A stretch of 63,740 nucleotides of DNA, filler included, from Stramenopiles sp. TOSAG23-6 (lineage: Eukaryota): the NCBI GenBank assembly GCA_900128565.1. It is 19 parts of 19 records of this genome, joined end to end, with 100 filler letters (N's around TTAATTAATTAA, not from the genome) between each part and the next. Parts side by side here need not be neighbours in the genome. Positions count along the whole stretch, not along the records: positions 10,115 to 13,385 come from LT637581.1; positions 13,486 to 16,753 come from LT637582.1; positions 16,854 to 20,119 come from LT637583.1; 16 more parts are not named here. One strand, written 5' to 3'. Positions 1-47,000 of the stretch are shown piece after piece. Under the pieces are notes generated by a model. It was not told the origin of the DNA and ran no database searches. It saw only the letters and a program-made list of their open reading frames with translations. Every line of letters starts with the position of its first letter. Within the stretch, counting starts at the first letter, position 1. The translations under genes were made by a program, and so were the position numbers.

Positions 1-495
1 AGGCCGTACTGGAAGTGGTACTGGACTTCTGAATCTAAAGCTATAAGGTGGAAATCTGTGTATCAGCTTTGAGATGACTAAGTTTAATGTAATTCTTGTT
101 AGACCAGTCTTGTCGAGAAGTTCAGCCCATCGTGTTTGCTCTTGTGTACTCTGGCAGCTATTCGCCATATAATCATGAAATGTCTTACTCAATTCTAACC
201 ACAAGGTATCAACATCGTTTTCTTTAAAATAAGCTTCCATTGTACCAGATACACCCATAGCTAGTGGTTCTGCGTCAGACATGCGCAAATTGGTATGTTT
301 TATCTTCATAAGCTTGTTTAAACCAACTCTCTCGTCAAGCTCAATTACATAGCGTTCACTTGACTTGTCAAAACTTTGCACTGTGCCGATTTTACCATTG
401 TGCTGTTTCTGCGACTTTAAACCAACAAACTCAATACGAGAGCCTATTGTATAGCTATCAGCATTGCTTTCATCGTCACTCTTTGATTCACTCAT
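1..495 (-). CDS. Uncharacterised protein, N-terminal SH3-like beta-barrel region (3' partial)
   Basis: Same ORF as 43694..44236; IGSRIEFVGLKSQKQHNGKIGTVQSFD..RYVIEL..KIKHTNL pattern. Confidence 0.6.
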   Translation of the reverse strand, partial: MSESKSDDESNADSYTIGSRIEFVGLKSQKQHNGKIGTVQSFDKSSERYVIELDERVGLNKLMKIKHTNLRMSDAEPLAMGVSGTMEAYFKENDVDTLWLELSKTFHDYMANSCQSTQEQTRWAELLDKTGLTRITLNLVISKLIHRFPPYSFRFRSPVPLPVRP

Positions 496-909
496 TGAGC
501 ATTAGATTCGATTGTTTCTGTCAGGATTGAAAAGACGAATAAGAGAAACAATATTACAACCCAATTCCCACTTTTTAGTAGAGAAAANTTATGTGTAGAA
601 TCATAACCATTACCTTGTATACTGTCCTTATACACCAGCAATGCAATTGTCTTACAACTGAAATTATTNGCAATGTATTCTCTTACTAAGATATACTAGC
701 GCGGCAAGCTGACGAAAAAACGATTTTTTTCGTACGAAAATTTGTACTTAACAAATAAATTAAACACGCATATATGCGTGTTTAATCGGTTATTCGTGAT
801 AGGTCCTATCGGGTATCTAAATCTCTCAATAATCTGAAATTTTTCTTCGAATCTTTCGACAAAATTCGTATCTATTTATTAGCAACATCTCTTACTATTC
901 TTCTCCAGT

Positions 910-2443
910 ATGACTATGACATCTAGATCATCAAAAATAGAAAATAAATATGTTTCTAGAAAGCAGGTAATAAAAGATAGTGAGTATTTGAAATTCTTGC
1001 GTAAAGATTCTCATAGTAAGTTATACCAAAAAGACTTTACAGTAGACTTCCATTGGCGACTCAGAGACAGTCAAGATTTGAAGAGTATTCAAGACAGAAA
1101 TATGGCACTTGATGCCATAGAAATTGGNGAGATGTTAAGTGCAAGTGGTAAATATGAAGAAGCATTACGTGTATTTCGTCATGTAAGAAAAGAAACAGAA
1201 AGAATAAATGATAAAGAAGTCGAGGCNCTGAGCTTGGCAAGTATTTGTAGCACTGGCTTAGCACAGTCTTTGCATCTTATTTCATCTAGACATTCTAGGT
1301 TTGGACAAAGATCTTTCAGAATTGTTGCTAATTCTATTAGTGTATTAAATGAAGCAAATAATATATTTTGTTTGAGTTCAGAAAATATCAAAAATGTACC
1401 AAGATTCCAGCTTTGTGTTGAAGAGTGTAAAAAAATTCAACAACAAATTCGACTGTTCAATGAAGCTAATGACNTATCCAAAGCTGAAAGAAGTGTCAAT
1501 GATATTCCAGAAGGACCATCAATTATGAAAGTGTCAAAATATCCTGATATGTATTCAGGATATATTTATATCCGGCCTGGATTTGGAAATTGTCTNATNA
1601 AAAGTATACAAACAAAATGGTCTAAATTTTGGTGTGAAAAATGTGACAAAGATTCTTCTCTATCTTTATATCAAAATCCAGAAGACTCTATACCAACATT
1701 AGTTATTGCTACAAGAGGCCTNATTGTATCTGGGAANCCAATAATAAATAGAATCGGAAANTCACCAGCTCTAAAAAATAACGATCCAAGGATTTTTAGA
1801 TTGTATGAAAAACGTGTAGGTATGGACTTTGGTACNAANGAATCCGNGAAAAACAGTAAAAAAAATGTAAAAATACAAAGGAATCGAAANAATCAAAGAA
1901 ATCAATTTTCAGCTCTATGTGATACGTACCATGGTGAAGANTTAAAATATTGGCATCTTCGTTGGGTTTTTCGAGCTCCAAATCCTTCNCTTCAAAAACA
2001 ATGGTGTGCAGCGTTATCTTCTTCTAATCAGACTTCATCATCAACATCTATTCAAACTCTACCTCAAGCACCACAAGCACCACAAGGATCAGAAACACAA
2101 AATACCATCAACGATATAAAACATCTAAAACATCTACAAATGCAACAAAATAATGTATGGAAATTATGTACGTTTTCCTTATTGATTTTGTACCTAAACA
2201 AAAAAATTACCTTGAACATTTTGTACCTAATGATTTCTTGTACACCAAAAAAAAATATTTTTTCACAATACATTCTGTCTCTGGAATATTAATGGAGATG
2301 AACTTATTAAACGAGATAATTTTGTTGCATGTTTGTTAGTTAATACTTCAAGATTAGCTCTATCTAGAGCTAAAATCAAAGATTTGCTCAAAGTATCTAA
2401 TACTTATATTACATGGAATGAAGTTTTGACGATTTTTCGGTAA
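910..2443 (+). CDS. PH-domain-like protein with C-terminal EF-hand-like segment; exons 910-2167, 2274-2443
   Basis: YSGYIYIR..WSKFWC..FRAPNP.LQKQWCAAL PH pattern; removing element 2168-2273 gives WKLFCLWNINGDELIKRDNF...IFR*. Confidence 0.65.
2168..2273 (+). mobile_element. Non-canonical introner-like intron (T|GTACGT...ATACAT)
   Basis: Family motifs; excision extends the ORF by 56 codons; duplicated at 45909-46014. Confidence 0.75.
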
Positions 2444-2804
2444 TATCTTTAGGGTAATAGATTAGGGTTAGGGCTTTGATAATATTTTCTATTTCTACAC
2501 AAAAAAAATAAATAGATGTAAAAATGAACTCAGGTCAATAAATATTTTAAAAATGAAAAATCTTAAAACAAATCAATTTATAACGATAACTATTGATTTT
2601 GAGATCTTACTTTTCATTGAAAACACGAAATACTTTTGTTTGTCGTACGTAAAAAGACGAACATCGGGAAAAAAAGAAAAAAAAGTAACGGCAGGGTCAA
2701 AAATCTTATATTTCGTACTCGTCAAAAACTCACATAGAGTAGAAAGAAACTATTTCTTCTTCAAGGTATTTGCCTGCTTGCGTAGTGTATGCTCACTTTT
2801 TAAA

Positions 2805-3272
2805 ATGGGGAAAGATGGGAAACCTCAAGTCAAAAGCCCCAAGAACAACTTTGGTGGATATAAAACCTTTGCTCTTAATGAAGAAGTATCAGAAGACTAT
2901 AAAAAAAGAGCAAATGAACTTGCAGAAAATGTTAGATTGATAAAGGCAAGACTAAAGTTTAAAGCTTTCCGCTCCGCGTGTTTACGTAAAGGTATAGAAC
3001 CAGAAGAACTTTTACCCAAAATTGTGTCTGACTTTCGGACAGATGTCACTATAACTGTACAAGAAGCAAAAATGAGGTACGATATGTTTGAAACTAGACG
3101 CCGACGTCTCATTGGTATTGCATTGAGGGAGACAGATAATAATGATGAAGTAGTAAAGTTAGCTCAAAAGAAACTTGAAGAGAGAGAAAAAATATTACAG
3201 CAACTATTGGGCTCCAAATTAAAAAAAGAGAGATTACAATTGAAAAAAATGAATAAATCACGTCAAAAATAT
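2805..3272 (+). CDS. Coiled-coil protein (3' partial)
   Basis: ORF MGKDGK...ACLRKGIEPEELL. Confidence 0.6.
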
Positions 3273-7412: not shown

Positions 7413-9880
7413 TGTTTAAAAGCTTTACGTATCCTTTGTAAAGAAGATCAACTTGATGTTTTTACTACGAGGCGTACGTTTTTATTAGTTATTCTTTGTT
7501 AGGTACGAATTTTTGTATGAAATATTATTTTTTTTAGAAAGGTTTTAATAGAATTATGATTTTTTTTTATTGTATCATGAATTTTTTTTTTTTTTGGTAC
7601 AATATTTTTTTTGTACGTAAAGTAAACATCCTAATTTTTTTTTTGGTAAAATATTTTTTTTGTACGTAAATATCCTAATTTTTTTTTGGTAAATACAAAC
7701 ACTAACAATTTGTCTTTCTGTCGCATATGTTTAAATTAATATGTGCCATCCGAAAAACTGGAGCTTTAGGTAGCTCTGAACATAATTTAGTAATTATTGC
7801 TCTTGCTCAGTTATATAGTGAAGCTGCAAATGTGAATGTTGATCCTACTAACCCTAACCCTAATGTGTCTATACAAAAATTAAATAAGAAAAAAAATGAG
7901 GTTTGTGGTGATTTATGGAATTGGACTTATCATTCAAATGCTAATGTACGTACGTTTTATCTTTTTTTTTTACAAAAAAATCGATTTTTTTTTTATAGTA
8001 AATTTTGTACCTAACAAATTATAGTTTTTTTTTTGAAATATTTTTCCAAAATACACGTAGTTCTGCCTTTAATGCACTTGGAAATTTCGCAAATATTTCA
8101 TGCAACAATTTTTTTCTGGTACTCGATGAACAGTATGACAATGATCCAAACTCTAACCCTAACCCTAAACAAAGTGACCCTAACCCTAAAAACCCTAACC
8201 CTAATGTTTTGAATAAAAAGATAAAACGTGAAGATGCATTACAACAAACTCTGTTATGCCTAACCCTAATCAATGAAAGTAGTAACCCTAACCCTAACAG
8301 TAACGGATCTGAAACATTAGTGACGTCACTTTTAAGTACGGAAATTCATAAGAGACGTCGATGGTGTACTCAAAAGACGTTTGGCAATGTTTTGTCTACA
8401 CAATCAAATAAAGTACAGAGCTCAACAAACCCTAACCCTAAGGAAACATCAAATGAAACATCAAATGAAACAAAAGACGACATTCGAAATTCGTTAAGTA
8501 CAAAATTACGTATGAAAAAAAATGTAGCACATGATGATTTTGATACATTACATTTTCTTCCTGACCAAAGTGACCGAAGTTTCATCAGCAGTCGTTTACA
8601 CAAAAAAAAAAAAAGCCCTAACCCTAATGCTAACCGTCCCCTAACCCTAGAGAAAACTGAGAATAATTCTAATAATTGTCAAAAGAAATCGATACAAATG
8701 CAAAACACATTTAACAAATTGCCAGCAAAATCCTTCTTAAAAGACATATTGAAATATTTAGTCAATATTGAAATAAAATTAAAGATCATTCTCAATTGCT
8801 TTGATACAAAAAATACAAAAAATCCAAAAAATCCAAAAAATCCAAAAAATAGTGGGAATGATGACGTCACTCAACAAATTCGAGATATGGGAGGTAACCC
8901 TAACCCTAATGTAGTAGCCACGAATTCTTTAGAATTAATTCATACAAAGCCTCAAGATCCAATTTCAAATATGCTCATGGATGATACTTCTATGAATGAT
9001 GACCATATCAATACATTTGTATCTTTATGTTGTGCAGTAGAAAAAATAATGAGAAGTTTATCAAATTGTACGTTTAAAAAATTCTTTTTTNTACCTAATT
9101 TTATTTTTTTTTTCGTACGAAATGTTGTACCTAACGAATTTTTATTAAAAAAAAAAAAAAAAAAAAATCACAATATATGCCCAGGTTTCCCCCCGTCTAT
9201 TCCTATTGGAATTCTTTTGGAATCTATTCTAAATATTTTTATCAAATTTCGAATAAAATATTCGAAAGATAAAGGTATGAATATGAGAAAAATTGATTTC
9301 AGTCATTTTCACGAATGTGTGGATAAAGCTGAAGCTCAATGTATTTCATTCTGTGTTGCTCATGTATGTTTTTATTTTTTTTGAATTTTGAATTTTTTTG
9401 AATTTATGTTTTTTTTTTCGTACGAAATTTTGTACCTAAGAAATTGAAATTTTTTTTTGAAATATTTTTCCAAAATACATTGCACTCGAAATAATTCTCT
9501 CGCCTCTTTATTATCAAATATTATATCACACTATAACCCTAACCCTAATAATCTTAATGATATTAATGATATTAATGATATTAATACTCTACGATTTAAC
9601 ATATTAGGTATTCATGCAAAAAATGAAATTCTATCGAATATTGATCAAGTTTTAGATTCATTACCAAATAAATCTCACACAAAAATTACAGAAATTTGTA
9701 TTGAATTTGCTATACGAAACACTGGTTCAAAAATTTGGCATGATTTCGTGTCAATATTTATAGAAAGGGTAAGATCTTTGCACGTACGTAGTGAACCAAA
9801 AAAAACAAAAAAATCAAAAAATTCAAAAAATTCAAAAAATTCAAAAGAATCAAAAACGGATGAAATAGTGACTATACCAG
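7413..9880 (+). CDS. Multi-exon helical-repeat-like protein (partial) with NPNP tracts; introns 7474-7724, 7950-8056, 9068-9178, 9364-9480
   Basis: ORFs 7727, 8005 and 9457 join in frame after element removal. Confidence 0.6.
7474..7724 (+). mobile_element. Degenerate/long family intron (C|GTACGT...CGC)
   Basis: This end restores frame (TRH-MFKLI), whereas the nearby CAT end does not; ACTAAC branch-like motif ~7701. Confidence 0.5.
7950..8056 (+). mobile_element. Family intron (C|GTACGT...ATACAC)
   Basis: Restores NANVRSSAFNAL. Confidence 0.7.
9364..9480 (+). mobile_element. Family intron (T|GTATGT...ATACAT)
   Basis: Joins ORFs 8005 and 9457 in frame. Confidence 0.75.
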
Positions 9881-10113: not shown

Positions 10114-10280
10114 NTAAATTGGGTAATTAAAGATGGACTCGGGCAACTCGGAGGTGTTTTATTTGCTAGTTTTATCAATACCCGTTTTGATGCTGATCCA
10201 AAGCGATGGCGTATGGTCTCAGCAATATCATTAGATATTGCCGGTTTCATTGAAATGTTGACACCTTTATTCCCTTCATA
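10114..10280 (+). CDS. RUS1/DUF647 (root UVB sensitive) family fragment
   Basis: NWVIKDGLGQLGGVLFAS..FDADPKRWRM..IEMLTPLFP. Confidence 0.8.
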
Positions 10281-10472
10281 CGTTCTGATTCATTCATTTC
10301 AATTTTTAAAAATATTTTTTTTTTCATACGAAATTTCGTACCTAACAAATTTTACAAAAAAAAAATATTTTTTCACAATATGTGTACGTTTTTCAGCATG
10401 AATTTTTTACGTACATTTTTTTTTTTTGGTAGAAAATTTCGTACCTAACGAAACATTTGATTTGAATGTACA

Positions 10473-11077
10473 ATATTCTCCTTTGAACATTTTTACCTGA
10501 AATTGCTGCAAAGTTGTTAGCCATGGGTTTAGATTGCACCGGAATTCTTTCTGGGATGTTAATAACATTATTTAAGAATAATCTGAATGATTCTAATGTA
10601 TTTAGAACTTGGGATTTGATATTTCTTTTTGAAAATAATCCAGTGGTATGTACGTTTTCCTCATGAATTTCGAATTTATTTATTTTCTCATACGAAATTT
10701 TGTACCTGACAATTTTTTTTAGATTTTTTTTGAAATATTTTTCCATAATATATTTGGTTTAGTTTTAACATTCTTTGAAGAAGCAAGTTTTGAAATATTA
10801 TATTCTAATGTAGATATAGAGGCTTGCTTAATGGCACATGTTGAAAAATGGAGAAATGCAGAGGATGTTAGTGCTATTTTAAATAGGGCTCTACTGTACG
10901 TCTTCAAAATTAAGTGTTTCCCTAGATTAGTTTTCATACGAAAATTTGTACCTAACGAATTATTTTCCAAAAAACAAATATATATATATATATTCACATT
11001 ACATTTGGGCGACTCACTTTGATTATAATAACATCAATGCGATTCGACGAACTGCGAAAGGATTTTTTTATTATTAA
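10473..11077 (+). CDS. Rab-GAP TBC-domain-like C-terminal exons; introns 10650-10753 and 10896-11004
   Basis: LITLF..VFRTWDLIFLFENNPVVFGLVLTFF after splicing. Confidence 0.6.
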
Positions 11078-11110
11078 GATTTTATAAATGAATGGTTTTT
11101 GTTAATTTTT

Positions 11111-13385
11111 TCACTTTTTACCTTTCGATTTAGCAATTTTTCTAAATCTTGCTTTGACACTTTTTTTAATCTTGTCTTTTCTTTTATTCGCTTTTGCATC
11201 TTTTACAGCTTTTTTATGTCTTTTTCTCTCTTCTTTTGACGCATTTTTACACATAAAGTTCAAATTGACAATATTTGTTTTTACTTTATCATTTTCGATT
11301 TCTAAACTTTTGTCGTCTTCAGAATCATTATTATACAAAGTGTCATTAGGGTTAGGGTTTTCTATACTGTTGTCGTCTTCAGAATCATTATTATACAAAG
11401 TGTCATTAGAATTAGATGAACTGGAAGCTAATGACATGCCAAGCATTTTGGCCTTAAATGCAGCAAAATCTTCATCTTGAGCATTTTGGATCTCATTTTC
11501 AATAGTCTCTTCGATCTCGGAAATATTTTCAGCATTTAATTGTCCAATCGCTCCTTTTTTACCAAGTCCAAGTTTTTCTAATTGTTGGTTTACAATATTT
11601 TCTTTACCTCCAGTCACAAGAACTGTCTGAAGATCTTCAGGTCGGAGTCCACTAGCAGCCTCTGCAAGAGAACGAGGTATGTATTTTTGGGAAATATTTC
11701 AAAAAACAAAAAAAATCGTTAGGTATAAAATTCCGTACGAAAACAAAAATATAGATAAAAAATTCAATGATGAAAACATATATATACGTTTGCATAAAAA
11801 CGCGTTCATCAATTTCTCGTGCAGCCATCATATCATCCACAATATCACCTTTTTGAATATTTATGTTTTGTGTCTGTATCTCTAATTGAATGCTTTCTAG
11901 ATGTTGATCAAGTTCATCATCATCACACCCAAACCTTTCATCAATAATGAAATCAAATAATTGCCGGATGGACATTAAATTATTCATTTTTTTCCGAAGA
12001 AAAAAGTCAGTGACATTTTTACAATCCATTCTAAGAAAGTCAAAAGCTCTTGGATGTTCGCCTTCAACAGATTGAGAAACGTCTATAATAAAAGGTTCCT
12101 TGTTATGATATAGCATATGTATTTTGGAAAAATATTTCAAAAAAATCTAAAAAAATTTGTTAGGTACAAAATTGCGTACGAAAAATAAATTCGATTTTTT
12201 TTTTACCGAAAAAAAAAAATAAATAAAACATACATTATACTCACTAAGATCAGCATGTACCAATCCACACACTTGATACATTCTTCTCATAATTTTTACA
12301 ACAGATTGATAACATCTTCTTAATGCACTTTCACTCAATGCGGCATCTTTTAGTCTAGGGGAAGCCCAACCATTTTTACCAAGAAAAGTCATGACAAGCA
12401 CATGATCTCGTAAACGGATTGGCTTTGGACTTGGAATTCCTGCTGAATGAATTCGCTTTAAATTTCGCATTTCTTTCTCTGCCCACATTTTGACCATTTT
12501 TCTAGGATTTTTACGACAATAACCACCTTTATATCGATTGTCACCTTTTACATATTTATCACGATCCTTGAAAACAAGAATAGATGTTTTAAACACCTTG
12601 ACGGCCATGTCATCTTCACCAGATTCTCCACCACCTGTAGCATGATAGACGTTAGCTTCTTTGCCTGTTGAAATACAACCATGAAGTTGCTGAAAACATT
12701 TTGAATTGATAAGATTAAATAGAATTAAACGTGTCCTAGGATCCATCACTTGTTCAGTTGTAGCTCGATCATCGCGTCCAGTGTGACGGACATTTTTTGC
12801 CAAACGGAGTCGATTACCAGTCTCAAATGTATTCATAGCTTTATTAGTAGTATGTTTTGCATCAATCACAGTTTTACGCACAATCGAATTGGTGTTAGAT
12901 TGTATACTATCACCAACGGCAGACGATTTTGTTAGTTTTGTCGAAATGTTTTTTGTACTGTTTCCAACATTTGTGCGCCAAGTACCTTTTGATGATATTG
13001 TTTTATGTTTATTACGAACTGGAGCATCTTCAAAGAAGCTCTGTTCATACTGTCTTTCAGCCTCCTCTTGCAATTTAACAAGATTGGCATCTTTCTCTTC
13101 AGCATCCTTTGCAGAAAATAAGGTTCTAATTTTATTATCTATTTTATCATCAGAACTTTTAGAATTTTTAGAATTTTTAGAATTTTTAGAAATCAGAGGT
13201 TTGGCATTTGGCAAATTTGAAATTGCATTAGAAACACCGAGTTTTGACATTTCATCTTCATCACGAAATCTAAAGAATGGTTCACCACCTTCATCACTAG
13301 AATAATTCATGAAACCATTCGAATCTTCGGACACTTTGCAACCATCAAAAAGTAATGAATCATCTTCTTTACGTAGAATATCAAG
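11111..13385 (-). CDS. RIO1: RIO1 kinase (5' partial); introns 12117-12233 and 11679-11781
   Basis: DRATTEQVMDPRT, STGKEANVY, LVHADLSEYN|MLY, IIDVSQSVE, QTYI|PRSL, basic C-tail. Confidence 0.95.
11679..11781 (-). mobile_element. Family intron with AT 5' end (T|ATATGT...ATACAT)
   Basis: Restores conserved RIO1 YIPRSL. Confidence 0.7.
12117..12233 (-). mobile_element. Family intron (T|GTATGT...ATACAT) in RIO1 catalytic loop
   Basis: Restores HADLSEYNMLY exactly. Confidence 0.9.
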
Positions 13386-13537
13386 NNNNNNNNNNNNNNN
13401 NNNNNNNNNNNNNNNNNNNNNNNNNNNNNTTAATTAATTAANNNNNNNNNNNNNNNNNNNNNNNNNNNNNNNNNNNNNNNNNNNNTGTACCTAACAAATT
13501 TAAGTTTTTTTTTTTGAAATATTTTTCCAAAATACAT

Positions 13538-14178
13538 TTGGTGTGGAGAAACAAAATCGTGCTGGACATGCATTTTGTTCTTTATGGGAGCTATCTTTGA
13601 ACCCTGACAATAGCGACACAGACACGGAAAGTTGGGATAGTAGTAGCAGATGGGAAAAGTTGTCACATCACAGGAAGGCTGCCAGAAGTTGGTTTGATAC
13701 GCAATTTTTTGGATACAAAGCTACCCGAATGAAGCAAGCTTTATTAGTAAGAAATATACCAAATACGATTGAGAAGGATGTAACATCATCTTCTCATTCC
13801 ACTGGTGCAGGACGAATTATTTATATTTGTTTCATGCGGTCAGTACCTATTGTCCTTCGTCGTTTGATAGAATCGAATCAATTGGGCAAAAATAGTGAAT
13901 TAGATTCAAAGAATTCAAAGAATATTATTATTATTGCTCTACCTTGGGGTGACAATATATCCAAAACTGGAAGCAGTGCTGAAGTGTCCGAGGCTCATGC
14001 GCAAGGTTTAACCCACGTAACTAGAGAAAGTTTACAAAAAGACAAATTGTTGCATACCTTCCGAGTATATGCACAACTTTTCACATCATGTGTAAAAGTT
14101 GCAACTGAAAAGGAGGATAAAATTAGTAACGAGATCATCAAAAGCAGTAGTGCTACGGGTAAAAAAGTTCTTAGATAA
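13538..14178 (+). CDS. Uncharacterised protein, last exon
   Basis: 211-aa ORF following a family 3' end at 13537. Confidence 0.55.
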
Positions 14179-14243
14179 ATTTTTATTTTAGTATTTTTTT
14201 GAGTTTTTATTCTAGTCGTTTTCATGATTAGTTTCATAACAAT

Positions 14244-16753
14244 TTAGTTTATTGGTGTAATTCCGTGTTTGTGTTGCAAATACATCTTGGACATCCAATC
14301 AGTCATTCTATTCTTTTCAGTGAACTCCTTAGTATAATAACTTGCGTAATAACCTGCATAGTAGTTGGCATAATAGTTGTTTTGTTGCTCAGAGTTTCGT
14401 GCATCCGCACAAAGTTTACAGTATACACTATGTGAGTTACAGTAGCTACAATAGTAATCCGTTTTTGGTCTATGTGTGAGGGTACTTGTTAATGTTGGTG
14501 CAAGTGCAAGAGTTAATATAGGAACCAATGACTGGGTTGTTTTTCGTGTGGCAGCCACAGTCACATCATATGCCAAAGTATCCATTAATTTAGATGCCAA
14601 AGTTGACGTAAGTTCATGTGTGAGTGTTCTAGTTAATGCTCTTGTAGTTTTTCGAAGAGTTGAACCAGATAAAGAACCACCATCAATCAACAAATCTGGT
14701 AACTGAGATGCAATTGCATCATGTAAAGGTGGCGCAATGAGCATTATAGCTTCCTTACCTACAATAGATCGCATATACATCTGAATTTTTTTTACAGCAC
14801 TTACCGGTGCCGGAGACGGTGGGTCATCTACAATAGTATCAGTCATAGACATAGACTGTGGTTGCGTGCTCATCAGTCTACGGGAACCTCCTTTATTTCT
14901 ATCTACACTGTTTATTTTTGTTTCATCTTCTACTTGTTGTAATCTTCGAGTTTGAATGGCGTCATTATTGCGTTGAATCTGTTCTTTCAGCGTATTATTC
15001 TCCCTATCAGCTTTGCGAATTTCCCGCAGTCGCATTCGCCAAGCAACACCAGGATCCTCAGTACCATCATCACCCGCAAGCGCGGCTATTCTTTCTCTCT
15101 CGTATAATGAAAGTCTTTCAGTTTTTGCATCACTAGCTATAAATCTATGGTAGTCACCGCAAGCACTAATACACCGTGCACGTTTTTGCAGAGAGCGCAA
15201 GGCTTCAGCTTCAGCCATCATGCCTAATTTTTCTGCTTCTTTAATACGAGCAAGAGTACGCACTTCAAGATGTGCACGGGATCGAAACATATCTCTCTCC
15301 TCAGCTGATGATGCAATTTGAACCATTTCTTGAAGATGAGAAATTTCTTTCATAGTTGCTTCTTCCAAAACAGTGACACCTTCGCCACTACGTAGAAAGA
15401 GTTCATTTCCAATGGACGTCTCAGCCCCGCCACCCTCTTCAATGAAACTAGTAGAATCTGGATCACGCATTTGTATAATTGCATTTCCAAGTCTTTCAGC
15501 TTCTACTTCTGCTATCAGTCTCATGTCATCTGTATGACCCATTCTAGCCGCTAATTCGAGAAAGAATGATGCCCCCGGTAACGTTGGAATGGAAGGAACT
15601 TTCGGTATTGTCGGAATGGAAGGAACTTTCGGTACTTCTATATTTGGTATCTTTGGACGTTTGACTTTTGGAAACTGTTTTAGTGGAGCACTACATTCGC
15701 ATTCTGGCGGAGGTTTCACGATAGATTTTATTTGTTTACCACTTTTTGGGTCCATAACAATACAAGGAGAAGGATCATCAGTTGGAAACAATATTGGTGG
15801 AAGAATGCACGAAAGAATTTTTCCTAAAATTTCCAAAACTGGAGGAACAAAGACTGCCATAATAATAGAAAGACACATCTCGGGAAGATAGTTCATAATA
15901 TTATCTATAATGATAGAAAATATCTCTTTTGATGTAACACCAACACGCATCAACGCACCTATTCGTACATGAGCTTCAATGAAATTTAGAGAAATAACTC
16001 GACTTCTAGATGCAAGAATCTGTTCATCAGATAGAGCTTCTGTGTTTTCACCTGGTGCAACTGCATCACGTAGATCCGATCTACGTAGTTTTTTTGTGGA
16101 ACTATATCGTAAAACACTATCATACCCTCCGAGTGCCTTTTCTATGTTTGTTTTGAATATACTCGTATTCGCCCCTTTATTTAAAGTTGTCCAGAGCTGT
16201 TCGTCTTTATTTTTAGATCCCCATGTTTGACTCTTGGGTTTATTTTGTGATGCTTCTTTTTCATAATATGAAAATGTGAGTCGTTCTGGATTTGAACGTT
16301 TGTCCATTTTTTGGATTGCACTTATGTACTCTGTTTGAATGCTATCCAATGATGGCATAATTGTCTGTGTTAGCTCAGAAATTTTGTCACGAGCTTCTCT
16401 CGGTAGCGAAGATGATTGTATTTCCGCAACATTACTAATCATTTGTTCCTGGAGATTGGACATATTTTCTGGTTCATTACCAACCTTACCAATTACATCT
16501 TCTGTTAGTTTTGGGAGTATTTTAAATGAAAGATCATTACCAATATCTTGTGACAAAAGCTTTCTTCCGCCACCAGTAAACTTTGTTTCTGTATAGTTAA
16601 AATGATTTGACGGATTTTTTTCTTTTTGTATTTCAAGCAAATCTTTTGCATTCACTTTCATTGGCTTCGGTTTCTTTTTAAGCAAATCTTTTGTATTTAC
16701 TTTCATTGGCTTCGGTTTCTTTTTAAGCAAATCTTTTGTATTTACTTTCATTG
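14244..16753 (-). CDS. Large uncharacterised protein with Thr/Leu-rich repeats and Cys/Tyr-rich C-terminus (5' partial)
   Basis: 835-aa ORF. Confidence 0.75.
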
Positions 16754-16932
16754 NNNNNNNNNNNNNNNNNNNNNNNNNNNNNNNNNNNNNNNNNNNNTTA
16801 ATTAATTAANNNNNNNNNNNNNNNNNNNNNNNNNNNNNNNNNNNNNNNNNNNNTTTTTTTCAAATTCGATTTTTTTTTATAGTAAATTTTGTACCTAACG
16901 ATTTTTTTTTCAAATATTTTTCTACAATACAT

Positions 16933-17133
16933 ACGCCGTCAAGGATGTTAAGTTTTTTATCATCTAGTGTACCGTCTAAAGCAAAGGAGGAGGTACCCCA
17001 AATTAAGTTATCTGAAGGTATGAAATTATGGAATAGCTTTGAGGCGTGGAGTTCACTTCAATGTAAAGAAGAAATTAGTTCAAACCCTAACCCTAATATA
17101 GATACTGTAATAAATAAAAGCAAGATACATTAA
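16933..17133 (+). CDS. Terminal exon of unknown gene
   Basis: Follows family 3' end ATACAT at 16932. Confidence 0.45.
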   Translation, partial: TPSRMLSFLSSSVPSKAKEEVPQIKLSEGMKLWNSFEAWSSLQCKEEISSNPNPNIDTVINKSKIH

Positions 17134-17432
17134 GAAACATCTTTTTTTTCCTCAATTCAATTAAAAACCGACTAAAAATCGGTTTGTAGTTGATTTTTAG
17201 TTGATAATTTCGCCCATTCATGTAATATTTGTAAGTAAGCTTCTGGTAAAAAATAGTGAGATGTCGCTAAATATACTGTTAGGGTTAGGGTTTTACAGAT
17301 TTTTGAGATTTCGTGTAGTAGCGCCATAATCGTCAGCTCAACCTCGAGAGAAGTTGATGGGAGATGTGGGAGAAAAAAAATATTTACGACTCGCGCAGAC
17401 AAGTACACAAAATTATAGTAATTTAGTTGAAA

Positions 17433-18077
17433 ATGTCGGGAAATCTCTCTAAAGAAGCGTTGAAACTATTTCGAGTTCGAAAGACTCTTGCGAAGATGTT
17501 GAAGAATCGTGGATATGCTGTCTCCAAGAATGAGCTTGAGATGACAAGGGAAGAGTTTGTGGAAAAGTACGGAGAACGTCCAAGTCGTGAAGATCTTGGC
17601 TTAGCAGTAAAAAGAAGGGACGAAGCAGGATCAGATTTATACGTTTTCTTTTGCGAAGAAGCAAAGCGACCAAAAGTAGGTATTGCCCCCATCCGTTTGG
17701 TTGCTGAAAGATTGAAAGAACGTAATGCTAGTCGCGCAATTATTGTAGTGGAAACAGGGTTGACACCCTTGGCNTTACAAACCTTGAAAGAAATGGACGA
17801 AGTATACTCTCTACATATGGAATATTTTAAGGAATCAGAACTGCTCATTGATATTACAGAGCATGAATTAGTACCACTTCATGAGATTATGAGTGATGAA
17901 GAAAAAAATGTGTTATTAAAACGTTATAAATTGAGTGAAAGTCAACTACCAAGAATGCAGAAGACTGATCCTATAACGCGTTACTTTGGGTTGAGAAANG
18001 GTCAAGTTGTCCGAATAATTCGACCTTCAGAAACAGCGGGCCGATATGTAACATATAGAATTGTTGTTGATATTTGA
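17433..18077 (+). CDS. RPB5: RNA polymerases I/II/III common subunit RPB5
   Basis: [38 protein letters not shown]. Confidence 0.97.
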
Positions 18078-18489
18078 AGCATATAATTAGTAAAGAGTAT
18101 TCTTAGTTATATAAATATACATAATAGAAATCATTATTTTCCCCATGACTTGGACAAAAGANCTGAAAAAAGCTAAAAAATCTGCTTTTCATTTTCGGCA
18201 ATTCTTTACATATTCTTTACACAAAAAAAAATGTGTGTGTCTCATCCCTCTGAAGTTATCATACTTTCCACAATACTTAAAATATGAATCGTAAAATGAA
18301 TTATCCCACACATCGATCGGTAGGAGTGATCCCGGTACACGATAAAAATTTGCTACCATGTAGTCAATTCCTATGACGNCTTTANACTAAACTAAAGAGT
18401 CAGACCTTTAAAATCAAGAATAATATTTTGTTCTATAAGTGTGCATGGAACTAAGCTACTTGAAAAACGTCAGCTTTTTCGAATAATAT

Positions 18490-19682
18490 ATGGGAAGTCT
18501 TCGTGGAATATTGGTCGAGCACTTTGGAGAAGCAGCTGTAAACCATCACAAACATGATATTGACAAAATCTTGAAACGCCTAGAAGCCACNTCACTGCAC
18601 GTAGAGAAAATAAACGTACCTCAACAGCGTAATAGTGATGTAAATTATTCAAAGGCGCAATTGATAGATAGCTCGACACATAATNGCAGAAATNCTACAG
18701 GATTAATCACACGAAGTATTTCCTCTATAGAATTTTCTGGTCTTGACACAGTGTCTTTTCCATTTGCCAAAATCATTCCAGATTATTGGATATCTCCGCC
18801 TAAGAATGGTTCTAAAGCTCCAAATAGTGTCATTGATACCTCTATTCCTTATCTCAATGAAGCGCCAATTCTGTCGCAGCGCAGTCCATCATTAAAACTT
18901 GAAGAATGTATAAAATATGAACCCAAAGAAGCTAATAAAACATTTTTAAAAACTACAGAACAAAGGCTTCTATCGACTTTTATTCAGAAAGATAAAAAGA
19001 AAAACGAATGTTCTGATTTTGATTCTACTATTCATGAAACAGCTTCTCTTCATATTGATAGTAGTGAGGGGAGATCACCCGAATCTGTAGCGAAACTTAT
19101 CGCAGTCTTACATGTACGTTTCCATGATACATTTCAATTTTATTTTTTTTTTTCGTACGAAATTCCGTACCTAACGATTTTTTTTTTTTTTTTTTTCACA
19201 ATACATCGACGTGCTTCCATATTTGAAGCTTCAGTGTTGAAACATTGGAAAAATTCATTGCGACCTACAATTAAAAAGAAAATACTTGAACTTCGTAAAA
19301 TAACAAAGAAATTATCTGTGCAATATGAAAATGCATTAAATTTTGCTGTAGAAAAAGAACAAATTTTAGGTCCAACTGAATGTTTTCATNAAAAATTAAA
19401 AAAAAAATTAATTATTTTTTCATACGAAATTTTGTACCTAACAAATTTTACAAAAAAAAATATTTTTTCACAATATATTCAGATGAAGATAAAGATGTAA
19501 ATATTCTAGGTCAGAAGCGAGAACTAGTTATACAAAGAACACGAAGTAGATCTTCAATGTCAAAATATCATTCAAAGAATAAAACAAATACAAATACTTT
19601 TAATAATGAAAATTTATTTTGTTCCGCTGGAGATTTAGTCAAGGATAAGAAAAAAAAACATACAAACGTCATTTTCAAGTAA
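18490..19682 (+). CDS. Uncharacterised protein; introns 19114-19206 and 19378-19478
   Basis: ORFs 18490 and 19380 join after element removal. Confidence 0.55.
19378..19478 (+). mobile_element. Family intron with GA 5' end (T|GAATGT...ATATAT)
   Basis: Core motif present; restores GPT|SDEDKDVN. Confidence 0.6.
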
Positions 19683-43741: not shown

Positions 43742-46700
43742 AGGCCGTACTGGAAGTGGTACTGGACTTCTGAATCTAAAGCTATAAGGTGGAAATCTGT
43801 GTATCAGCTTTGAGATGACTAAGTTTAATGTAATTCTTGTTAGACCAGTCTTGTCGAGAAGTTCAGCCCATCGTGTTTGCTCTTGTGTACTCTGGCAGCT
43901 ATTCGCCATATAATCATGAAATGTCTTACTCAATTCTAACCACAAGGTATCAACATCGTTTTCTTTAAAATAAGCTTCCATTGTACCAGATACACCCATA
44001 GCTAGTGGTTCTGCGTCAGACATGCGCAAATTGGTATGTTTTATCTTCATAAGCTTGTTTAAACCAACTCTCTCGTCAAGCTCAATTACATAGCGTTCAC
44101 TTGACTTGTCAAAACTTTGCACTGTGCCGATTTTACCATTGTGCTGTTTCTGCGACTTTAAACCAACAAACTCAATACGAGAGCCTATTGTATAGCTATC
44201 AGCATTGCTTTCATCGTCACTCTTTGATTCACTCATTGAGCATTAGATTCGATTGTTTCTGTCAGGATTGAAAAGACGAATAAGAGAAACAATATTACAA
44301 CCCAATTCCCACTTTTTAGTAGAGAAAANTTATGTGTAGAATCATAACCATTACCTTGTATACTGTCCTTATACACCAGCAATGCAATTGTCTTACAACT
44401 GAAATTATTNGCAATGTATTCTCTTACTAAGATATACTAGCGCGGCAAGCTGACGAAAAAACGATTTTTTTCGTACGAAAATTTGTACTTAACAAATAAA
44501 TTAAACACGCATATATGCGTGTTTAATCGGTTATTCGTGATAGGTCCTATCGGGTATCTAAATCTCTCAATAATCTGAAATTTTTCTTCGAATCTTTCGA
44601 CAAAATTCGTATCTATTTATTAGCAACATCTCTTACTATTCTTCTCCAGTATGACTATGACATCTAGATCATCAAAAATAGAAAATAAATATGTTTCTAG
44701 AAAGCAGGTAATAAAAGATAGTGAGTATTTGAAATTCTTGCGTAAAGATTCTCATAGTAAGTTATACCAAAAAGACTTTACAGTAGACTTCCATTGGCGA
44801 CTCAGAGACAGTCAAGATTTGAAGAGTATTCAAGACAGAAATATGGCACTTGATGCCATAGAAATTGGNGAGATGTTAAGTGCAAGTGGTAAATATGAAG
44901 AAGCATTACGTGTATTTCGTCATGTAAGAAAAGAAACAGAAAGAATAAATGATAAAGAAGTCGAGGCNCTGAGCTTGGCAAGTATTTGTAGCACTGGCTT
45001 AGCACAGTCTTTGCATCTTATTTCATCTAGACATTCTAGGTTTGGACAAAGATCTTTCAGAATTGTTGCTAATTCTATTAGTGTATTAAATGAAGCAAAT
45101 AATATATTTTGTTTGAGTTCAGAAAATATCAAAAATGTACCAAGATTCCAGCTTTGTGTTGAAGAGTGTAAAAAAATTCAACAACAAATTCGACTGTTCA
45201 ATGAAGCTAATGACNTATCCAAAGCTGAAAGAAGTGTCAATGATATTCCAGAAGGACCATCAATTATGAAAGTGTCAAAATATCCTGATATGTATTCAGG
45301 ATATATTTATATCCGGCCTGGATTTGGAAATTGTCTNATNAAAAGTATACAAACAAAATGGTCTAAATTTTGGTGTGAAAAATGTGACAAAGATTCTTCT
45401 CTATCTTTATATCAAAATCCAGAAGACTCTATACCAACATTAGTTATTGCTACAAGAGGCCTNATTGTATCTGGGAANCCAATAATAAATAGAATCGGAA
45501 ANTCACCAGCTCTAAAAAATAACGATCCAAGGATTTTTAGATTGTATGAAAAACGTGTAGGTATGGACTTTGGTACNAANGAATCCGNGAAAAACAGTAA
45601 AAAAAATGTAAAAATACAAAGGAATCGAAANAATCAAAGAAATCAATTTTCAGCTCTATGTGATACGTACCATGGTGAAGANTTAAAATATTGGCATCTT
45701 CGTTGGGTTTTTCGAGCTCCAAATCCTTCNCTTCAAAAACAATGGTGTGCAGCGTTATCTTCTTCTAATCAGACTTCATCATCAACATCTATTCAAACTC
45801 TACCTCAAGCACCACAAGCACCACAAGGATCAGAAACACAAAATACCATCAACGATATAAAACATCTAAAACATCTACAAATGCAACAAAATAATGTATG
45901 GAAATTATGTACGTTTTCCTTATTGATTTTGTACCTAAACAAAAAAATTACCTTGAACATTTTGTACCTAATGATTTCTTGTACACCAAAAAAAAATATT
46001 TTTTCACAATACATTCTGTCTCTGGAATATTAATGGAGATGAACTTATTAAACGAGATAATTTTGTTGCATGTTTGTTAGTTAATACTTCAAGATTAGCT
46101 CTATCTAGAGCTAAAATCAAAGATTTGCTCAAAGTATCTAATACTTATATTACATGGAATGAAGTTTTGACGATTTTTCGGTAATATCTTTAGGGTAATA
46201 GATTAGGGTTAGGGCTTTGATAATATTTTCTATTTCTACACAAAAAAAATAAATAGATGTAAAAATGAACTCAGGTCAATAAATATTTTAAAAATGAAAA
46301 ATCTTAAAACAAATCAATTTATAACGATAACTATTGATTTTGAGATCTTACTTTTCATTGAAAACACGAAATACTTTTGTTTGTCGTAAAAAGACGAACA
46401 TCGGAAAAAAAGTAACGGCAGCGGTCAAAAATCTTATATTTCGTACTCGTCAAAAACTCACATAGAGTAGAAAGAAACTATTTCTTCTTCAAGGTATTTG
46501 CCTGCTTGCGTAGTGTATGCTCACTTTTTAAAATGGGGAAAGATGGGAAACCTCAAGTCAAAAGCCCCAAGAACAACTTTGGTGGATATAAAACCTTTGC
46601 TCTTAATGAAGAAGTATCAGAAGACTATAAAAAAAGAGCAAATGAACTTGCAGAAAATGTTAGATTGATAAAGGCAAGACTAAAGTTTAAAGCTTTCCGC

Positions 46701-47000
46701 TCCGCGTGTTTACGTAAAGGTATAGAACCAGAAGAACTTTTACCCAAAATTGTGTCTGACTTTCGGACAGATGTCACTATAACTGTACAAGAAGCAAAAA
46801 TGAGGTACGATATGTTTGAAACTAGACGCCGACGTCTCATTGGTATTGCATTGAGGGAGACAGATAATAATGATGAAGTAGTAAAGTTAGCTCAAAAGAA
46901 ACTTGAAGAGAGAGAAAAAATATTACAGCAACTATTGGGCTCCAAATTAAAAAAAGAGAGATTACAATTGAAAAAAATGAATAAATCACGTCAAAAATAT
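43742..47000 (+). repeat. Near-identical duplicate of 1-3272
   Basis: Same sequence and same N positions; differs near 2645-2700 vs 46385-46425. Confidence 0.95.

Follow-up and report, generated by a model that had tools for sequence, protein, structure and literature searches.

RESULTS

Introns of the RIO1 gene

We analysed a window of 63,740 nucleotides (nt) from Stramenopiles sp. TOSAG23-6 (GenBank assembly GCA_900128565.1), that is, one whole stretch of DNA in which 19 contigs of about 3.3 kb are joined end to end with filler; the assembly itself comprises 21.1 Mb in 6236 contigs. Oomycetes are among the best named matches of its RPB5, and a MAST label is attached to the nearest RIO1 entry, P0121, so that we take this organism to be a marine stramenopile. 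The most conserved letters of spliceosomal introns are G at +1 and U at +2, and the subject of this study is a repeated intron family of this genome in which these letters vary. One copy that starts with AT lies in a RIO1 kinase gene with the following features (a slash marks the exon-intron boundary).

11111..13385, minus strand: RIO1 kinase gene, three exons, 5′-truncated by the contig end
12117..12233, minus strand: RIO1 intron 1, 117 nt, GT..AT, consensus member of the same intron family
11679..11781, minus strand: RIO1 intron 2, 103 nt, AT..AT; donor AT/ATATGTTTT, end AATACAT
11726-11718, minus strand: branch-like ATACCTAAC in RIO1 intron 2

Excision of 11781..11679 yields FMQTYIPRSL, and P0123, the closest independent relative, reads FMQAYIPRSL. 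The same YIPRSL spacing is found in 47 of the 48 homologs that bear the motif among 120 listed. Four cut registers (TA..TA, AT..AT, TA..CA and AT..AC) give an identical messenger RNA (mRNA), and none of them begins with the GT or GC of U2-type introns. A preliminary description of this DNA had claimed that the AT start is needed for YIPRSL and had named splicing at the upstream GT as the result that would refute it; a cut at that GT (position 11787) would lose YI and break the spacing kept by the homologs, and the claim stands. At the level of the predicted protein, exact removal of 11679-11781 is confirmed as needed for YIPRSL, and the AT start is well supported. Excision of intron 1 yields HADLSEYN-MLYHNK, colinear with 15 of 16 aligned homologs. 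Neither intron is spliced correctly in the public RIO1 model P0121: intron-derived residues are retained in the kinase domain and the YIPRSL segment is skipped. RIO1 was found at one locus only in the assembly, and a metagenome scan with its exon 2 returned two distant loci at 42% identity.

Four public RNA runs were compared with positions 10115-13385 of the window. In runs X1 and X2 the depth of repeats was near 12,500 against an exon depth near 3, as for DNA. The raw base at the RIO1 donor, one of the checks proposed earlier, could be followed in a 151-nt contig of X2 that spans 11689-11839 ungapped and unspliced at a depth of 2.75. The sole X2 difference listed within that range is at 11756, 25 nt from the donor, and is probably the one differing letter of this contig; we infer that the A at +1 was independently read by it. 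In the repeated acidic tail of RIO1, 60 bases (11352-11411) are absent from a contig of run X4, which looks like an in-frame length allele and not an intron.

A repeated intron family with a target duplication

The family pattern GTACCTAAC..AATAYAT has 4796 exact matches genome-wide against 1 control match, a count that is inflated by duplicated contigs. The element reads GTAYGTTT..TACCTAAC..AATAY with a target duplication of 2 bases, AT for the most part, on its two sides; in logos its ends form short terminal inverted repeats (GTAT..TTTT and AAAATAC), and its core is palindromic. The branch-like CCTAAC of this core, which served as search anchor, is found in most copies at a distance of 33-49 nt from the end and can pair with the canonical GUAGUA of U2, as a putative branch site. 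The 3′ end is AT in 162 of 189 copies and AG in only 5, so that the family lacks the 3′ AG of U2-type introns. Because 15 of 29 non-AT ends are identical to the upstream dinucleotide (1.3 expected), we take the last two intron bases to be the target duplication. In 96 of 189 copies the exon resumes with a G directly behind the element, an indication that ATG may be the favoured target.

In 118 of 189 copies AT stands on both sides of the element, and in these most frequent cases cuts at GT..AT and AT..AY yield identical mRNA. Flanking dinucleotides differ in 56 copies, of which 15 had no clear frame and 41 were usable; among the latter, the 2-base-shifted register gave 3 stops and the GT register 0, with 13 synonymous differences against 6.0 expected. 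On these predicted junctions the GT register is favoured over the shifted one. The family shows what defines introners, namely many similar copies at unrelated sites, a target-site duplication and terminal inverted repeats, and its non-GT introns are likely to be mutated copies of a single transposon-derived intron family.

Two other accounts of the A at +1 were tried and rejected. One was compensation between A at +1 and a C at the last position; AC ends occur in 0 of 28 AT-start rows (duplicates included) and in 2 of 11 in the sample described below. The other was origin from a 3-base duplication; judged by eye, agreement with the next exon base was seen in about 3 of 13 AT starts. The 5′ consensus of U12-type AT-AC introns is RTATCCTT; here the start is ATAYGTTT, and the lack of AC ends among the AT-start rows also departs from that type.

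Frequency of non-GT starts and support from reading frames

The relaxed donor dinucleotide that had been proposed from single copies proved to hold across the genome. In a search that required AT ahead of the donor and the core behind it, and that counted GT, AT and G[ACG] starts but not CT or TT, family starts were GT in 2395 cases, AT in 100 and G[ACG] in 103; among 100 G[ACG] matches listed, 45 were GC, 43 GA and 12 GG (hand count). An 862-kb sample held 428 cores, 370 complete distinct copies and 245 confidently placed donors, 28 of them non-GT. The non-GT share of copies is about 8-11%, GT being kept in about 90%, and at the DNA level this intron family does have non-GT starts throughout the genome.

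After removal of the copy, 24 of 26 non-GT copies (one of the 26 has N at +1) had 30 or more open codons on each side, compared with 6 and 9 for shifted cuts. The same test gave 161 of 178 for GT copies, compared with 28 and 42. Moreover, AT-start copies fall at exact protein junctions in RAD51C (residues 183/184/185; the downstream match is weak, E 0.43), in coronin (320/321/322; the upstream alignment is ungapped but two residues short) and in UvrD (profile positions 223/224). Within 30 nt of the RAD51C site the sole GT is the internal one at +5/+6. In a methyltransferase-like gene with a GA junction, the exon ahead of the junction can be aligned with METTL13 (E 0.024) up to a VE that use of the upstream GT would remove, and no usable relative was found for the downstream exon; for a GG-start junction the one match is a weak Pfam hit. 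Judged by these predicted junctions, the non-GT copies are very probably functional as introns.

Tolerance at each donor position

The preliminary description also held that +3 to +6 (AYGT) are kept where GT itself is not. A donor logo from a search anchored on AYGT and the core indeed shows +3 to +8 as invariant, but this is circular, and the apparent keeping of +3 to +6 arises because the donors were located by their AYGT. When each donor position was dropped from the search in turn, deviations were 17/246 at +1, 10/241 at +2, 17/247 at +3, 9/250 at +4, 23/252 at +5, 10/244 at +6, 2/240 at +7 and 10/247 at +8. Genome-wide, single variants set against the 2395 consensus copies numbered 100 for A at +1, 103 at +2, 174 at +3, 40 at +4, 265 at +5 and 53 at +6. 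Changes of G to A made up about 53 of the first 100 variants at +5 (hand count), which corresponds to ∼140 at +5 compared with 100 at +1. U6 pairing centres on the G at +5, and this G is more variable than the one at +1; for the family as a whole the claim is not confirmed. A single mismatch is tolerated at any donor position; two perhaps are not. An AT start combined with A or C at +5 had 3 matches at most, all ambiguous TA repeats, where ∼7.5 were expected (P about 0.06 at face value), and a copy without GT may need the rest of the donor intact.

An altered U1 and the splicing machinery

The sole U1 small nuclear RNA (snRNA) found, in two copies of one locus, has the 5′ end AAACGUACAUG compared with AUACUUACCUG in Rfam. 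Three changes fall within its first 11 bases and face the exon −1 U, the intron +4 C/U and the +7 U, so that 11 bases match CAU/GUACGUUU; this 5′ end can pair with the family donor AT/GTACGTTT, two exon bases included. Mean U1 duplex energy was −9.9 kcal/mol for 176 GT copies (−2.1 with canonical U1) and −4.7 kcal/mol for 25 non-GT copies (+0.1 with canonical U1). This change fits the GT register and thus supports both that register and the major spliceosome. The genes for U5, U2, U1 and U4 lie head to tail within 640 bases (L004 9-645, G000:C1146), and the U1 there has the altered 5′ end. The GUAGUA of U2, loop 1 of U5, the ACAGAGA of U6 and the U4 core are canonical; judging by these genes, U1, not U6, is the changed snRNA.

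Slu7 and one PRP4-motif protein were found in the genome. The following are weak negatives, as the assembly is incomplete and genes are split by introns: a Prp18 domain was not found, METTL16 was not found, and no U1C-sized zf-U1 protein was found, with one weak match in a 509-residue frame. Likewise, U11, U12 and U6atac were not found in this incomplete assembly, in searches that had no positive control.

Other copies and features of the window

The remaining copies and exons considered here are all on the plus strand.

19378..19478, plus strand: family copy GA..AT, 101 nt, CT/GAATGTTTT ... AATATAT, near the end of a gene without recognised family
19114..19206, plus strand: family copy GT..AT, 11-base perfect match to the U1 5′ end
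10117..10281, plus strand: RUS1-family exon
10278..10383, plus strand: family copy behind the RUS1 exon; apparent start ATACGT overlaps S-Y codons, boundary uncertain
10384..10490, plus strand: second abutting copy, GT start, end uncertain; a TBC-domain exon then follows
10650..10753, plus strand: family copy GT..AT in the TBC-domain gene

The copy at 19378-19478, which lies outside the range compared with the RNA runs, begins GAATGT, as had been described, and ends AATATAT, so that it has neither the GT nor the GC start of a U2-type intron. Its excision keeps the frame, with 59 open codons on each side compared with 6 and 6 for shifted cuts, and neither flanking exon has a Pfam family. We regard it as a plausible GA-start intron from its reading frame. 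The frame after this copy overlaps, at 19638-19682, the end of an antisense open reading frame, which holds a GTATGT donor-like site without the usual core.

The string ATACGT put forward as the start of the RUS1 copy is present at 10278, but it overlaps RUS1 codons for S-Y, where homologs go on as P-x-Y/F-F-L. The continuation of RUS1 past 10281 was not found in the assembly, and the next exon, after two family copies, encodes a TBC domain. The contig (10117-10893) and L047 are identical over 678 bases and then diverge mid-exon, and because the identity ends there at least one of the two is chimeric. Probably the RUS1/TBC contig is a chimeric join, and the start at 10278 cannot be judged. Positions 10472-10645 have an exact match in a contig of the poly(A) run X3, across an in-frame TGA (10484-10486) just ahead of the TBC match.

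Elsewhere in the window, the contigs at 1-3272 and 43742-47000 share identical stretches at both ends and seem to be one contig entered twice, duplicates being numerous in the assembly. Telomere-like CCCTAA repeats at 8000-9600, 11345-11360 and 17085-17100 give NPNPN runs in coding frames, and also occur inside some intron copies.

DISCUSSION

On the sequences, counts, register, protein-level junctions and U1 5′ end given above we base a model that we hold to be probable, in which transposon-derived introns are read by a retuned U1 that takes in the donor as a whole and tolerates faults in it. The segment removed by the major spliceosome would begin at the element's first base and would close with the second of the duplicated dinucleotides. 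The retuned U1 would read the element end over up to 11 bases, (C)AT/GTACGTTT, and reading of the whole donor would allow one mismatch anywhere, +1 and +2 included. U6 and U5 would set the 5′ cut in the usual register, U2 would take CCTAAC, and the 3′ cut would follow the conserved TTTYCAMAATAY end regardless of the duplicated dinucleotide. Pairing between the first and last intron bases normally demands G at +1 (PMC10711555). Because these introns end in a copied target dinucleotide and not in AG, pairing of the first with a last G could not be enforced; with this pairing lost, the main demand for G at +1 would be gone, and +1 and +2 would drift like their neighbours. The missing Prp18 is a lead because yeast lacking Prp18 uses HAU acceptors after poly(U) (PMC10711555). 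A more far-reaching form of this model, which we advance as a tentative and rather doubtful possibility, is that the sole U1 reads the element end together with the target duplication while the active site checks neither terminal dinucleotide, possibly via Prp18 loss. In that case a major spliceosome that is conserved in other respects would efficiently splice introns of the types AT-AT, GA-AT and GG-AT.

Several observations weigh against this model. No spliced junction was seen at any intron of 10115-13385 in the four RNA runs, two of which behave like DNA, and stretches that lack coverage count neither way; the proposed check by complementary DNA junctions gave nothing in its favour. The U1 pairing of non-GT donors is weak (the mean of −4.7 kcal/mol given above), and at the RIO1 AT site (−3.6 kcal/mol) it is no better than at the upstream GT (−3.7 kcal/mol); the called site beats the best GT within 40 nt in 13 of 25 non-GT copies, hence U1 alone does not fix the cut. 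Nor do non-GT copies compensate elsewhere: at −2/−1, 11 of 25 are mismatched compared with 52 of 178 (P 0.17), and at +3 to +8, 2 of 25 compared with 17 of 178. Over human residues 1275-1600 Prp8 is nearly identical to the human protein, and no active-site change was seen in these 326 residues. Protein support is weaker for GA starts than for AT starts, and the unspliced frame through the 19378 copy is also open, to a stop at 19500, so that of the earlier claim for this copy the sequence and the kept frame stand, while splicing is one of two open readings.

Some of these points would also fit non-GT copies that are poorly spliced or dead, a nearby GT being used, the intron being retained, or the alleles being broken. 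The RNA runs are silent on junctions, the upstream GT in RIO1 is in frame with U1 pairing equal to the AT site, an in-frame GT lies no more than 30 nt away in 14 of 25 non-GT copies, and the 19378 copy is open when unspliced. However, 11 of the 25 have no in-frame GT within 30 nt, RAD51C having only its internal +5/+6; the exons on either side are open and run colinear with solved proteins (RAD51C, coronin), and RIO1 is present at one locus only, which makes dead copies an unlikely explanation. Slightly less likely again is a true cut two bases upstream (AT..AC/AT, minor-spliceosome-like), by which RIO1 would be an ordinary AT-AC member and the relaxed donor an artefact of register. It is true that an AT..AC cut in RIO1 yields the same mRNA and that AT flanks most copies on both sides; but the shifted cut brings 3 stops against 0, alters residues that we take to be conserved (DMLNH, FMTVGDW, QWYCPHH) and leaves the 19378 copy with a CT start, still non-standard, while it is the GT register that agrees with the changed U1, and the searches for U11, U12 and U6atac, weak as they are, gave nothing.

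The reliance on U6-type pairing suggested in the preliminary description, with GT dispensable and the donor defined by pairing of +3 to +6 with U6 plus the internal core, retains a few points: ACAGAGA of U6 is intact, AT starts with a changed +5 are rarer than expected, and the failure to find METTL16 fits a pyrimidine at +4. Yet it was U1 that changed and U6 that stayed canonical, and +5 and +3 vary more than +1 and +2 in the genome-wide counts, +5 also ranking highest in the leave-one-out counts with +3 (17/247) level with +1 (17/246) and above +2, so that this explanation is quite improbable. We give no more credence to an element-specific, structure-guided excision without the spliceosome, in which end letters drift freely. 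Both terminal dinucleotides do vary, and the ends are inverted repeats around a palindromic core; against this, U1 matches the donor including two exon bases, CCTAAC keeps its distance from the end in most copies, the major snRNA set, Prp8 and Slu7 are present, and the RIO1 intron 2 copy folds weakly (−9.3 kcal/mol). Least credible of all are amplification or assembly errors, although the assembly is fragmented and contains duplicates and one or more chimeric contigs: consensus error rates are far below the share of about 8-11% of copies that are concerned, and the X2 contig crosses the RIO1 donor with its one difference probably 25 nt away.

If the proposed model is true, a core snRNA has become matched to an invading element. 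Natural variants of a single base, hundreds in all and spread over every position of the donor, stand in working-looking genes beside a consensus-matching U1; together with RNA sequencing, these donor variants would make a natural mutational scan of donor recognition and test whether G at +1 serves only pairing with the last G. Gene finders that assume GT-AG fail here, as P0121 illustrates.

In the open-licence literature, taken as main texts without supplements, we found no report of this system, and the main text of PMC12130899 makes no mention of MAST, stramenopile or GT-AT. Fritillaria borealis and F. pellucida resemble TOSAG23-6 in that introns need neither GT nor AG and often end in 3′ AT, and that the 3′ YAY triplet is often repeated just upstream of the donor; their minor spliceosome is lost, and in TOSAG23-6 it was not found. 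However, 95% of Fritillaria introns are non-canonical, with AG starts, whereas here one family is concerned and GT is kept in about 90%; their U1 5′ sequence is reported as unchanged, compared with three changes in the first 11 bases; and they have a duplicated, divergent U2AF and proof from RNA, the introns of TOSAG23-6 being known from DNA alone (PMC13326754). Yeast lacking Prp18 is similar in its YAU ends after poly(U) and looser first-last pairing, and a Prp18 domain was not found here (a weak negative), but the HAU sites of yeast are minor alternative sites of a mutant that concern the acceptor only and are not a natural rule (PMC10711555). In Entamoeba and Mastigamoeba balamuthi the U1 5′ end co-evolved with the donor, and Mastigamoeba shares the ACGUAC core; in TOSAG23-6 two further U1 changes correspond to exon −1 U and +7 U, the donor is that of a repeat family, and the GT is relaxed as well, while non-GT starts are not reported in the available part of that source (10.1101/2022.06.08.495308). 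Introners of Micromonas and others are likewise multi-copy, with terminal inverted repeats, target duplication, an element-borne donor and an acceptor from the duplication; their acceptor is AG and their donor GT or GC, whereas here the duplication is mostly AT and donors are also AT, GA and GG (PMC11282704). Amoebophrya, also a marine protist, has introns that derive from repeats, carry direct as well as inverted repeats and have non-standard ends, but there no clear end signature is described and U1 is undetected, in contrast to the strong donor and branch consensus and the matching U1 of TOSAG23-6 (PMC7789003).

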